Positions 38,301-41,518 of a stretch of 43,198 nt of DNA are shown piece after piece (within the stretch, counting starts at the first letter, position 1; every line of letters begins with the position of its first letter). Source of the stretch: a virus; UHGV virus genome UHGV-1555466; one strand, given 5' to 3'. A program made the position numbers and the translations under genes. The notes below the pieces were generated by a model, which ran no database searches, was not told the origin of the DNA, and saw only the letters and a program-made list of their open reading frames with translations.

Positions 38301-38977
38301 GCAAATACACCGAACTAATCACGAACTACCACGCCACCAAACCTAAATTTCTTGCGCATGTTGATCTGATGACCCGGCCACTTATTGATGTTGCGGCTGC
38401 CACCAGAGGGCTGATTAGTGCATTTGATATTGACTCTGCGGTTGGTGTGCAACTTGACATCCTTGGATTGTGGATCGGACGTAGCCGTGTTGTCAGCCAG
38501 CCTATCTCAGGTGTCTATTTCAGCTGGGATACCGACGGGCTTGGATATGATCAGGGGGTATGGCAGGGACCATACGATCCTGATTCAGGATACATGTATC
38601 TCAGCGATGAAACTTATCGTGTCATTCTTAAAGCGAAGATTGCGATTAATAACTGGGACGGACGGAATGATTCGCTTCCGGCAATTCTTGACGCGGCAAC
38701 AGCAGGATCCGGGCTGCGAATGCAGATAGTCGATAACCAGGACATGACGATATCGGTCTGGGTCTTTCCTGATACTGATATTTCAGATGTATCGCGTGAG
38801 TTAATTGCGGCAATTAAACAGGGGTATCTCACAGTAAAAGCCGCCGGGGTATGGGCGGGTGGCATTGAAACACCTTCGGTGGAAACCCCATCGGAAGGCT
38901 CAAAATTTTTTGGTTTTGATATGGATAACGAATTCATCAGTGGTTTTGATGTAGGAGCATGGGGAGTATTACTCTGA
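38297..38977 (+). CDS. tail protein (Mu gp48 / P2 I-like)
   Basis: 226 aa between J-like and tail-fibre genes. Confidence 0.5.
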
Positions 38978-39771
38978 TGGCGAAAAATGACTTTAAAGCG
39001 TTTGCAACGGATCGAAATGCCAATGTTATATCGCAGGAGGAATGGGAAGCGTTGCCCGCGCTTTTATCTGGATTTACAGCAGGGAAAGCCTCCAGTGCGC
39101 AAGTCAATAAGGTTATTCGGCAGGCCAGCTTTATTGCTGCAGCTCTGGCCCAGTTTGTAAGTGATAAAACGCAACGGGATGTGCTTGATAATGGTGATCT
39201 GCCCGGTTTTGTTGAATTGCTGGGATCGGGGTTTGCTGTTGAATACCTGAGCCGCAAGAATCCGTTTGGCGATATCAAATCGGACGGCACGGTGAAAACA
39301 GCTCTCGAAAACCTTGGTTTGGGAGAAGGTGCCCCAGCTATTGGCGTTCCGTTCTTCTGGCCGTCCGCTGCAATGCCAAATTCTGTCATCGACAGCTGGT
39401 CCGGTATGGTGTTTTTGAAGTTTAACGGGGCGAAATTTTCTGCCTCTGATTACCCTGTGCTGGCGAAAGTGTTTCCTTCGCTGGTATTACCTGAAGCCCG
39501 CGGTGATTTCATTCGTATCTGGGATGACGGGCGAGGTGCAGACGGTGGTCGCGAATTATTAAGCTGGCAGGCAGCTACAAACTTTTCTCAGTTTGCCGGG
39601 AATATAGGCGATGGTGCGGGCCACACAATTAATTTTCATGATGGTATCGCCGGAAATCAGCCAGGATTTTCACGATTTAATTTCACCAGTAACTCTGTGG
39701 GTGATGGTGTGAATTTTGTTGCTGTCAGACCGCGAAATATTGCATTTAACTTTCTGGTGAGGGCTAAATAA
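38959..39771 (+). CDS. tail fibre protein (constant N-terminus plus invertible collar-domain C-terminus)
   Basis: 270 aa; collar-like motif [31 protein letters not shown]; contains the left crossover site. Confidence 0.65.
39302..39327. repeat. left recombination (gix/pix-like) site of the invertible segment
   Basis: ctctcgaaaaccttggtttgggagaa; inverted partner at 41124-41149; encodes NLGLGE in the tail fibre, mirrored by NVGLGE in the minus-strand alternative. Confidence 0.55.
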
Positions 39772-40364
39772 TGAAACCTGTTTTTGATGAAAATGGGCTG
39801 GCTACAGTGCCGGGCGATATGCGTTGTTTTTATTATGATGCTGAAACATCTGAGTATACGGGCTGGTCTGATGAATATATTAATACTGGCGTAAGTATGC
39901 CCGCCTGTTCCACTGGTATTGACCCTGCCGAAAACATTCCGGGAAAAGTGGCTGTATTTACAGGTAAGGGATGGAGCCATGAAGAGGACCATCGCAATGA
40001 GACTGTTTACTCAATCGAAAATGGCGCAGCTGTTACAGTGGATTATATCGGTGCCATCAAAGACGGTTATGTCACGCTTTCACCGTTAACGCCATACGAT
40101 AAATGGGATGGTGAGAAATGGGTGACGGATACCGAGGCACAGCATAGCGCCGCAGTAGACGCGTCAGAAGCACAGCGCCAGTCACTGATTGATGCAGCAA
40201 TGGCTTCCATTAGTCTGATTCAGCTGAAATTACAAGCCGGGCGGAAACTGACGCAGGCAGAAACAACCCGGCTTAACGCTGTGCTGGATTACATTGACGC
40301 GGTGACGGCAACAGATACCAGCACCGCGCCGGATGTCATCTGGCCTGAACTGCCGGAGGCGTAG
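39771..40364 (+). CDS. tail fibre assembly protein
   Basis: 197 aa ending DVIWPELP. Confidence 0.65.
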   Translation: MKPVFDENGLATVPGDMRCFYYDAETSEYTGWSDEYINTGVSMPACSTGIDPAENIPGKVAVFTGKGWSHEEDHRNETVYSIENGAAVTVDYIGAIKDGYVTLSPLTPYDKWDGEKWVTDTEAQHSAAVDASEAQRQSLIDAAMASISLIQLKLQAGRKLTQAETTRLNAVLDYIDAVTATDTSTAPDVIWPELPEA

Positions 40365-40776
40365 GCCATTCAATATCTGGCGCACCGGAAGTATCGACCA
40401 GTTCCAGTGCGTCCAGATAATCCAGCCACAAATTATATTGCACCAGTTCCTCACCTTTCAGGCGACCAATCGCCGCTTTACCAGGCCATTGCTTACTGTT
40501 TATGTATTCGTTGACCTGATTAATCAATTGCTGCTTTTTCAGTTCGGCTGCGGCAATTTGTTCCTCATGAGTTGGCGGTGGAATATCAATCCATGCAGGC
40601 ATTCCGTCGATGACACCTCTGTATTTTCCTTCTGGTGCTTCCTTCATAAATTCGGCAGCAACAGTGTCGTCAATTTCGATTCCATCATCGGGCCATTCGC
40701 CGGATTCCTGATAAGCGATTTTAAGCTCCACAGGGAAAAACGCATTTTTATCGGCACTGAAAATATATTTCTGCAT
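40336..40776 (-). CDS. alternative tail fibre assembly protein (Tfa')
   Basis: 146 aa ending DIEWPTPP, convergent with the plus-strand Tfa. Confidence 0.65.
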   Translation of the reverse strand: MQKYIFSADKNAFFPVELKIAYQESGEWPDDGIEIDDTVAAEFMKEAPEGKYRGVIDGMPAWIDIPPPTHEEQIAAAELKKQQLINQVNEYINSKQWPGKAAIGRLKGEELVQYNLWLDYLDALELVDTSGAPDIEWPTPPAVQAR

Positions 40777-40778
40777 TT

Positions 40779-41177
40779 CTACCGTCCTATCGAAATATAA
40801 CTGAATCTGTATTGCTGTGAGATATCACTGGTTGCCACACGCCACGCTGAATTACTGATATGTTCAAAATTTACAGACAAAACCTGCGGGGCAGGATTCG
40901 ACGGGTCTGACTGAACGGCATCAGACATAACACTGACTGAAATCATCGGCTGATTAGGGAATGGTATAGGGAAGTGTCCACTGATAAAGCGGGTCGTGTT
41001 TCCTGAAAAAGTGCCAAACTGAACAATATATCCACCTGGTAGCCTGAACCATCCCGAACCAGAAGCGAATGCTCCCATATCCGGTATCTGATTATCTCCT
41101 GTGCCCACATTCCGTTTTGCCGCTTCTCCCAAACCAACGTTTATGAAAATGCAGAAATAACGAGCAAATGGCATCAT
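40779..41177 (-). CDS. alternative tail fibre C-terminal segment (Sv'), expressed only after inversion
   Basis: Minus-strand ORF reading through the right crossover site; the ATG at 41177 is probably not a real start. Confidence 0.5.
   Translation of the reverse strand: MMPFARYFCIFINVGLGEAAKRNVGTGDNQIPDMGAFASGSGWFRLPGGYIVQFGTFSGNTTRFISGHFPIPFPNQPMISVSVMSDAVQSDPSNPAPQVLSVNFEHISNSAWRVATSDISQQYRFSYISIGR
41124..41149. repeat. right recombination (gix/pix-like) site
   Basis: ttctcccaaaccaacgtttatgaaaa, an imperfect dyad of the kind used by Hin/Gin/Pin invertases. Confidence 0.55.
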
Positions 41178-41202
41178 TCCTGCTTTTGTCAGAGGGATCC
41201 AC

Positions 41203-41518
41203 TATGCTTATTGGCTATGTACGTGTGTCAACAAATGACCAGAACACAGATCTACAACGTAATGCGCTGAACTGTGCAGGATGCGAGCTGTTTTTTGAAG
41301 ACAAGATAAGCGGTACAAAGTCCGAAAGGCCGGGACTGAAAAAACTGCTCAGGACATTATCGGCAGGTGACACTCTGGTTGTCTGGAAGCTGGATCGGCT
41401 GGGGCGCAGTGTGCGGCATCTTGTCGTGCTGGTGGAGGAGTTGTGCGAACAAGGTGTTAATTTTAGTAGTTATGTTATTACAGGTGGGGGATTTCTCCCC
41501 CTTATGCAGATTTTCTAG
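41203..41518 (+). pseudogene. truncated serine DNA invertase (Gin/Pin/Hin family), C-terminal DNA-binding domain lost
   Basis: MLIGYVRVSTNDQNTDLQRNAL...GDTLVVWKLDRLGRS matches the invertase catalytic domain; similarity stops near 41467 and the ORF ends at 41518 (about 105 aa versus about 185). Confidence 0.7.
41486..41501. terminator. hairpin at the junction of invertase remnant and cargo
   Basis: ggggga tttc tccccc perfect 6-bp stem; sits just 3' of the 281-aa gene stop. Confidence 0.35.

Follow-up and report, generated by a model that had tools for sequence, protein, structure and literature searches.

Can a tail-fibre inversion switch still turn once the invertase gene next to it has been broken? 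This question is raised by an Escherichia coli prophage (UHGV-1555466), analysed here as a window of 43,198 nucleotides. The prophage is of the myovirus type, looks complete and is inserted beside yfhH; its gene content includes a Prim-Pol primase, a DUF3383 sheath-like protein and a DUF2612 baseplate protein. Between positions 38977 and 41518 of the window it carries an inversion cassette, composed of a fibre gene with a constant (Sc) and a variable part (Sv), a Tfa gene, inverted Tfa' and Sv' genes and a truncated serine invertase gene, which a first-pass annotation had described as a Mu G-like switch locked by its truncated invertase. In our reading, which we hold with good confidence, the cassette is a Pin-type (e14 P-segment-like) switch of the tail-fibre tip, in which the resident invertase is dead and the segment persists as an orphan substrate flipped by a compatible invertase acting in trans. 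Comparison of the window with all complete genomes gave 11 differing positions, which are clustered, the source genome being absent from that set. The window's phage has 100% matches in four records deposited as phages (ON470579, ON470582, ON470588 and ON470593). However, yfhH, yfhb and tadA lie inside these records, which are therefore prophage cut-outs from genomes and were rejected as evidence of an inducible phage; a literature search for mentions of the four records found none.

The open reading frames follow the order given in the first-pass annotation, Sc-Sv, Tfa, Tfa' (minus), Sv' (minus) and invertase, and the Pfam and PHROG matches agree with it. The fibre gene, on the plus strand and ending at 39771, matches PHROG tail-fibre families and encodes 264 amino acids from position 38977, the RefSeq start in the identical locus. 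The in-frame ATG at 38959 from which it had been drawn does open the reading frame, but is not the annotated start. Sc comprises about 112 codons (38977–39314; phrog_11303 match over residues 1–120) and is 96–100% conserved in all relatives, regardless of the module behind it. The variable C-terminus now joined to it, Sv (39315–39771, plus), has matches to PHROG families of tail fibres and tail collars at residues 104–264 and is 42% identical to StfE of e14. It is followed by its assembly chaperone Tfa (39771–40364, plus; Pfam Caudo_TAP, E 3e-26), which shows 63% identity to e14 TfaE. Convergent with Tfa, and overlapping it by 29 nt, lies the chaperone of the silent cassette, Tfa' (40336–40776, minus; Caudo_TAP, E 9e-34; 56% identity to e14 TfaP), and beyond it the silent alternative C-terminus Sv' (40779–41136, minus, with the open reading frame extending to 41177; Pfam Gp53-like_C, E 4.5e-9). 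Inversion in silico at the central dinucleotides of the flanking sites yields an in-frame hybrid fibre of 231 amino acids with Tfa' directly behind it, and this hybrid is annotated as WP_060615827.1 in a genome that carries the flipped segment, 22AR0747. Sc can thus be fused in frame to either C-terminal module, each with its own Caudo_TAP chaperone, which bears out the exchange of the fibre C-terminus that had been proposed. The two resulting fibres presumably differ in receptor specificity and host range.

The two crossover sites lie where the first-pass annotation had placed them. Site 1 (pixL-like, 39302–39327) reads CTCTCGAAAACC TT GGTTTGGGAGAA, with its central TT at 39314–39315, and site 2 (pixR-like, 41124–41149) reads TTCTCCCAAACC AA CGTTTATGAAAA, with its central AA at 41136–41137. 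Just past site 1, at 39330, homology between the window and strain 357900 breaks. As inverted repeats they match at 20 of 26 positions, the inner 14 bases being identical, and they contain a 20-bp inverted repeat with arms matching at 19 of 20 positions. As proposed, the sites read NLGLGE when translated on the plus strand and NVGLGE when translated on the minus strand. The window has exactly two copies of TTCTCCCAAACCAA, one on each strand, compared to 0.02 expected by chance, and a chance match was rejected as the origin of the repeat. The core AAACCWWSGTTT is found at both sites only, and no further 26-bp crossover site was detected in the 43-kb window. As inverted, imperfect 26-bp dyads with an AAACC/GGTTT half-site core and the same central dinucleotide, the two sites have the features of Din-type sites. 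The alignment to known sites that had been suggested was carried out with gix and cix as given in the sequence records of Mu and P1, and with the e14 sites; both sites are identical to those of e14 in K-12 MG1655 (26/26 each).

This identity places the cassette nearer to the P segment and Pin of e14 than to the G segment and Gin of Mu. The cryptic prophage e14 of K-12 shares the gene order (stfP-tfaP-tfaE-stfE-pinE, that is Sc-Sv, Tfa, Tfa', Sv', pin), a pin 5' part that is 94% identical to pinE, the surroundings of site 1, the C-termini of Tfa, a segment of similar length (1797 bp in e14, 1822 bp here) and a slot for defence-type cargo directly downstream of pin, occupied by mcrA in e14. The locus is, however, not the e14 P segment itself, which was considered and rejected: e14 is a lambdoid remnant at icd and not a complete-looking myovirus-type prophage beside yfhH, the Sv modules here are at best about 42% identical or unrelated, and pin is truncated at codon 88. 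With Mu G/Gin and P1 C/Cin the cassette has in common the logic, the layout and 26-bp sites with AAACC..GGTTT half-site cores. The central AA of site 2 lies 67 bp upstream of the pin start codon, the same distance as between the right site and the invertase start in Mu. However, the 5' part of the invertase gene is only 69–72% identical to those of Mu and P1 at the nucleotide level, the sites share their central TT/AA with cix and pix, where gix has TC/GA, and the fibre is much shorter than Mu S (264 versus 504 amino acids). A specifically Mu G-like cassette was therefore rejected, with sites and invertase much closer to e14; of the earlier designation, the shared logic and layout hold.

The invertase gene (41204–41518, plus, in an open reading frame from 41168) consists of the native codons 1–88, 16 unrelated codons and a stop. 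The catalytic serine is retained in VRVSTNDQ, and the match to Pfam Resolvase covers only profile positions 2–98 of 145. The truncation point and the block that replaces the missing part were defined against a sister prophage with intact pin at the same chromosomal site, and the nucleotide alignment to intact pinE ends at 41464–41468. The truncation and the loss of the helix-turn-helix had been recognized in the first-pass annotation, but the loss amounts to 96 of 184 native residues instead of about 80 (the fragment has 104 amino acids, including the 16 unrelated ones), and the catalytic domain is itself incomplete. Since codons 89–184 encode helix E, responsible for oligomerization, and the DNA-binding domain, the resident Pin is dead. 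An autonomous Din-type system has a full adjacent serine invertase of about 185–195 amino acids with catalytic domain, helix E and helix-turn-helix; with only codons 1–88 native and no helix-turn-helix, the locus is a remnant of such a system. A search for a second invertase within the window found none, by which a flipping enzyme encoded in the window was rejected.

From 41465 to 42654 the intact-pin locus has no homologous counterpart, and this low-GC block (about 36–39% GC) carries a 281-aa open reading frame on the minus strand (41523–42368). No match to this frame was found in Pfam, PADLOC or PHROG; the sole lead came from fold comparison, which predicts a HEPN-like fold. Judging from the alignment, the block with its HEPN-like gene displaced the 3' half of pin and removed codons 89–184. 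The 5' part that stayed behind includes a stretch (41222–41293, invertase nt 19–90) homologous to the Fis-dependent recombinational enhancer that the P1 record annotates at nt 19–90 of the cin coding region. It is identical to intact pinE at 71 of 72 positions and to cin at 54 of 72, and by this homology the putative enhancer was kept after the truncation. The cis elements, namely the two crossover sites, the enhancer stretch and the two cassettes, thus all survive, which leaves the segment as an orphan substrate.

It could be argued that the 104-aa fragment has been retained for a function of its own, such as regulating or inhibiting other invertases, given that exact copies of it are listed in 1744 blocks of the assembly collection and that all sampled alleles except one share the same stop codon. 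This is, in our estimation, barely credible. Serine recombinases need helix E and the DNA-binding domain for dimerization and site binding, and both are missing; repeated replacement of the 5' halves from intact pin genes would conserve the frame in any case, and RefSeq treats the fragment ("missing C-terminus") as a pseudogene.

A dead invertase does not by itself settle the state of the switch, for which the orientation of the segment in relatives is informative. The search of assemblies for the inverted orientation, as had been proposed, revealed exact flips at the predicted crossover in three of 21 complete genomes with near-identical prophages of the same truncation (22AR0747, MSB1_6C and 1296KP), the other 18 having the window orientation. 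Orientations were called from assemblies instead of reads, and across strains instead of within one culture. In these three genomes and in UWWW01000001, the 1822 bp between 39315 and 41136 are present as the exact reverse complement between the same flanks, and the crossover in flipped copies is confined to 39314–39328. Among contigs encoding the identical 104-aa fragment, a further 3 of 25 are exact flips with the same truncated junction, and one variant cassette occurs in both orientations (L017 and L019). Judged from assemblies of other strains, same-truncation relatives thus include both orientations, and the exchange falls in the site cores, as in Din-type systems. The segment has flipped in nature after the truncation of pin.

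Recombination is clearly frequent in this region: loci with the same truncated junction bear different Sv modules, and the pin 5' halves across prophage loci of the family are 86–100% identical. Due to this mosaicism, some orientation differences between divergent lineages could reflect recombination instead of inversion. The switch might be a true fossil that no longer inverts, with the flipped copies produced by homologous replacement of the cassette from a flipped donor, Sc and pin serving as flanks. This seems improbable to us, as the flipped 22AR0747, MSB1_6C and 1296KP match their unflipped clone-mates at every base over the four modules and both flanks, and the exchange point falls within the 15-bp core of the sites; any donor must itself be a flipped copy of this very prophage, so that an inversion is required anyway.

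Flipped copies in sister strains instead suggest that the switch is apparently still turnable by another enzyme. All three flipped chromosomes hold another invertase-like sequence: the flipped fraction is 2 of 4 with a second pinE-type invertase, 1 of 8 with only another type (seven such chromosomes stay unflipped) and 0 of 9 with no other detectable invertase sequence, the second invertases being additional BLAST places from bait queries in chromosomes only, set against a cargo-only control and irrespective of intactness. Strains with a pinE-type gene include 22AR0747, MSB1_6C, ECSC054 and 097H6, and WP3-W18-ESBL-08, U1 and KKa019 are among those with no other serine invertase detected. Taken alone, the association does not reach significance (p 0.23 with any type counted, 0.08 with the pinE type), and the 21 genomes, most of which probably belong to one ST38-like clone, are phylogenetically non-independent. 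Intact-pin relatives are mixed in near-equal shares, with 5 versus 6 at 100% identity and 125 versus 94 overall, from which the 18:3 split of the truncated prophages differs (Fisher p 0.035 and 0.010, respectively), and the intact-pin strains BH100 and EDL933 are each present in both orientations. The lock that had been claimed agrees with the nine unflipped chromosomes, but not with the three flipped prophages; its qualified form, frozen unless another invertase acts in trans, fits the comparative data.

The flips might also have arisen without any invertase, if the arms of the 20-bp inverted repeat recombined by a RecA-dependent or short-homology route. The nearly perfect arms would allow for this, as would the flipped 1296KP, which has no pinE-type invertase. 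However, efficient RecA recombination usually requires more than 20 bp, 1296KP matches the pinR/gin/cin bait, none of the nine chromosomes lacking an invertase match is flipped, and flips are far more common in intact-pin relatives, which makes this explanation very unlikely.

Action in trans, to which we attribute the flips in same-truncation relatives, has precedents. PinQ, PinR and PinE each invert the e14 P segment, which is locked by deletion of pinE (PMC12529663). Like Fin acting on the Salmonella H segment, this demonstrates that the invertase of one prophage can flip the segment of another (PMC12529663), although the target loci in those cases retain an invertase of their own, whereas with the dead enzyme of the present locus trans action would be the sole route. 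The orphaned switch itself has already been published for another E. coli prophage: in Phi4 of EC958 the adjacent invertase is severely truncated and lacks the helix-turn-helix domain, yet the tail-fibre segment still inverts (Forde et al. 2014, PMC4134206), and its presence in both orientations was credited by the authors to an invertase in trans (PMC4134206). Phi4 is a different prophage, whose segment measures 3106 bp and whose gix-like sites have a TC core; its two orientations were observed in reads from a single culture, compared to across assemblies only here.

In the proposed mechanism, a serine invertase dimer would bind each 26-bp site and Fis, bound to the enhancer in the 5' end of the invertase gene, would assist strand exchange at the central TT/AA dinucleotides. 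The exchange would flip the 1822 bp, so that Sc is joined to Sv and followed by Tfa in one orientation, and joined to Sv' and followed by Tfa' in the other. In a cell without a compatible invertase, the segment would hold one orientation, until another prophage or a plasmid supplies an enzyme of the Pin/Gin/Cin/Hin family or of the PinQ/PinR type that flips it. As a more speculative extension, which we regard as rather doubtful, the 5' part of pin may be kept as a cis element (Fis enhancer) for foreign invertases, with a co-resident prophage or plasmid alone setting receptor choice, and the HEPN-like gene may be an uncharacterized defence cargo in the slot that mcrA occupies in e14.

The orphaned Pin-type switch reveals no new mechanism. 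It does call for caution, as a pseudogenized invertase does not equal a frozen switch. What it offers is a textbook system with a natural comparison, in which one cassette occurs with its resident invertase either intact or dead, across many sequenced strains of which some have other invertases and some have none. Such a comparison could gauge how much the host-range switches of prophages rely on enzymes borrowed from other mobile elements.

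The window covers E. coli DNA in which a prophage sits beside yfhH. The prophage genes encode a CI-like repressor, a Prim-Pol primase, a portal, a major capsid protein, a DUF3383 sheath-like protein, a tape-measure protein, a spike and the baseplate proteins Baseplate_J and DUF2612, with a five-gene fibre and invertase set downstream. This set comprises a tail fibre of 264 aa (38977..39771, plus strand), the Caudo_TAP chaperone Tfa (39771..40364, plus), a second Caudo_TAP chaperone, Tfa' (40336..40776, minus), a Gp53-like_C fibre C-terminus, Sv' (40779..41177, minus), and a serine-recombinase fragment, a truncated pin (41204..41518, plus). 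The first-pass annotation had this gene order right, including the fibre gene, whose start it placed at an in-frame upstream ATG (38959) instead of at 38977. Tfa and Tfa', which converge from opposite strands, share 29 nt (40336-40364), the same overlapping layout as in tfaP and tfaE of e14, and the C-terminal Tfa parts are the cassette's best-conserved pieces relative to e14 (91% nucleotide identity, 40083-40491). Directly upstream of the spike gene lies a low-GC stretch (35000-35964, about 39-42%) with small ORFs at 35091..35426 and 35423..35935; the prophage's homology to its sisters in BH100N and 357900 begins only at 35965, and here the tail module may hold a second variable slot for cargo.

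For the remaining prophage, SEN34 of Salmonella is the nearest sequenced phage, with 81% identity across 60% of the query. Four records that bear the names of Escherichia phages vB_EcoM-606R2, -689R2, -611R5 and -683R1 and are presented as complete genomes (ON470579, ON470582, ON470588 and ON470593) match the prophage at 100%. The one that was read, ON470588, continues into the host's yfhH, yfhb and tadA, and was rejected as a virion genome in favour of a prophage excerpt from a bacterial assembly; by analogy, the other three are taken to be the same kind of cut-out. The ON470582 record stops at the fibre gene start.

The cassette is of the Hin/Gin/Cin/Pin kind, with e14 P/Pin nearest in sequence. 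Two 26-bp sites in mutually inverted orientation, site 1 at 39302-39327 (CTCTCGAAAACC TT GGTTTGGGAGAA) and site 2 at 41124-41149 (TTCTCCCAAACC AA CGTTTATGAAAA), share 14 identical inner bases. This 14-mer occurs in the 43 kb only at these two places (chance expectation 0.02), and the AAACCWWSGTTT core is likewise absent from the rest of the window. Alignment with gix (Mu record) and cix (P1 record), which had been proposed as a check, revealed the same half-site and core layout. In K-12 MG1655 the two e14 P-segment sites, which contain the published e14 repeats (PMC12529663), are 26/26 identical to those of the window, making the cassette e14-like and not Mu G-like as first described. In-silico inversion of 39315-41136 joins Sv' in frame to the constant part of 112 codons, giving a 231-aa fibre immediately followed by Tfa'; the fibre C-terminus would thereby be exchanged.

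The invertase was compared with the intact 184-aa pinE of the BH100N sister prophage, located at the same chromosomal site. Nucleotide homology begins at the start codon, breaks off at 41464-41468 and resumes only at 42655; the fragment therefore keeps native codons 1-88, with the catalytic serine motif VRVSTNDQ among them, loses 96 residues and ends in 16 unrelated codons. The truncation and the loss of the helix-turn-helix had thus been correctly recognised, while the loss had been put at about 80 residues. The Pfam Resolvase match is limited to profile positions 2-98 of 145, no helix-turn-helix was found in the fragment by Pfam, and RefSeq labels it a pseudogene missing its C-terminus. A serine recombinase that lacks helix E and the DNA-binding domain is unable to dimerise or bind its sites. 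No second invertase is encoded in the window. Where cin has its enhancer (nt 19-90 in the P1 record), the window has a corresponding stretch at 41222-41293 that matches intact pinE at 71/72 positions and cin at 54/72. Site 2 lies 67 bp ahead of the invertase start codon, the same spacing as in Mu, and the cis elements, a putative enhancer included, thus persist.

Orientation was surveyed with the native and the in-silico inverted sequences as queries against 5,426 complete E. coli genomes. The native arrangement is present in 18 (100% coverage, 99.6% identity) and the inverted one, which the first-pass annotation had suggested seeking in assemblies, in three (22AR0747, MSB1_6C and 1296KP), all 21 carrying the identical truncated junction and cargo. 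In 22AR0747 the hybrid fibre is annotated, with the same pin pseudogene and the same neighbours. The flip is exact at every module and the outer half-sites are unmoved, so the exchange is confined to 39314-39328. The assembly collection lists the exact 104-aa fragment in 1744 blocks; among 25 contigs read from these, 22 are native-type and three flipped, and one variant cassette was found in both orientations (loci L017 and L019). Since flipped copies carry the identical truncated junction, inversion has taken place after truncation. The window itself differs from all 21 genomes at 11 positions, which all fall within 340 bp around the Sv/Tfa boundary (39723-40064), being otherwise identical over 8.2 kb; the patch looks like a small gene conversion, and the window's source strain is thus absent from the complete genomes searched.

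The argument on inversion is restricted to near-identical copies because the region is mosaic. The truncated junction is common to 43 complete genomes of several lineages, with yfhH adjoining in all, and their varied Sv modules and orientations and divergent pin 5' halves (86-100% identical) reveal the mosaicism. The window's truncated pin (41204-41464) and the alleles at loci L003 and L005-L008 have the junction and 3' portion in common, but their 5' halves are only 86-98% identical, with mostly synonymous differences, a pattern implying that recombination with other pin genes has occurred repeatedly within this half.

Other invertases on the same chromosomes were sought with bait queries, in which the unique cargo holds the 21 genomes atop the list and extra places denote other invertase sequences; cargo alone gave exactly one place in every genome. 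Adding the pinE 3' half gave an extra place in 22AR0747, MSB1_6C, ECSC054 and 097H6, and adding pinR and the gin and cin 3' halves gave one in eight further chromosomes, 1296KP among them; nine gained none with pinE, pinR, gin or cin baits. The flipped state occurs in 2/4 chromosomes with a pinE-type gene, 1/8 with only another type and 0/9 without an invertase match (Fisher p 0.08 for pinE-type and 0.23 for any type, with small numbers and related genomes). In the control set, relatives with intact pinE, the two orientations stand at 5 to 6 among copies at 100% identity and at 125 to 94 in total, and BH100 and EDL933 are strains that each occur in both states; the 18:3 split of the truncated copies differs from these (p 0.035 and 0.010). 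In experiments the e14 P segment, which has the same site sequences as the window, is inverted by each of PinQ, PinR and PinE and becomes locked when pinE is deleted (PMC12529663). The distribution is consistent with, though not proof of, action in trans. The earlier view of a switch frozen unless an invertase acts in trans is supported in this hedged form by the 0/9, whereas "locked" holds only conditionally, given three flips.

The low-GC block 41465-42654 stands in for the pinE 3' half and a different 215-aa gene of the sister locus. It carries a 281-aa minus-strand ORF (41523..42368) without match in Pfam, PADLOC and PHROG searches, for which 486 homologues are spread over Gamma- and Alphaproteobacteria at 56-74% identity. 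The gene that follows pinE in e14 is mcrA, and the position after pin looks like a cargo slot. This cargo gene, HEPN-like by predicted fold, is the least explained item near the cassette. The prophage right end (42655-43198) holds a conserved 88-aa minus-strand ORF (42670-42936; phrog_17793, unknown function) common to the window and the intact-pin sister prophage, and 42528-42650, just upstream of it, resembles a sequence that carries a DinI-like gene annotation elsewhere, in other genomes.

An autonomous Hin/Gin/Cin/Pin system needs a complete invertase, a defining feature that this cassette lacks, and the best name for the locus is an orphaned Pin-type cassette. The same situation is already on record for E. 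coli EC958, whose prophage Phi4 has an invertase truncated before the helix-turn-helix and a segment that still inverts, presumably in trans (PMC4134206).
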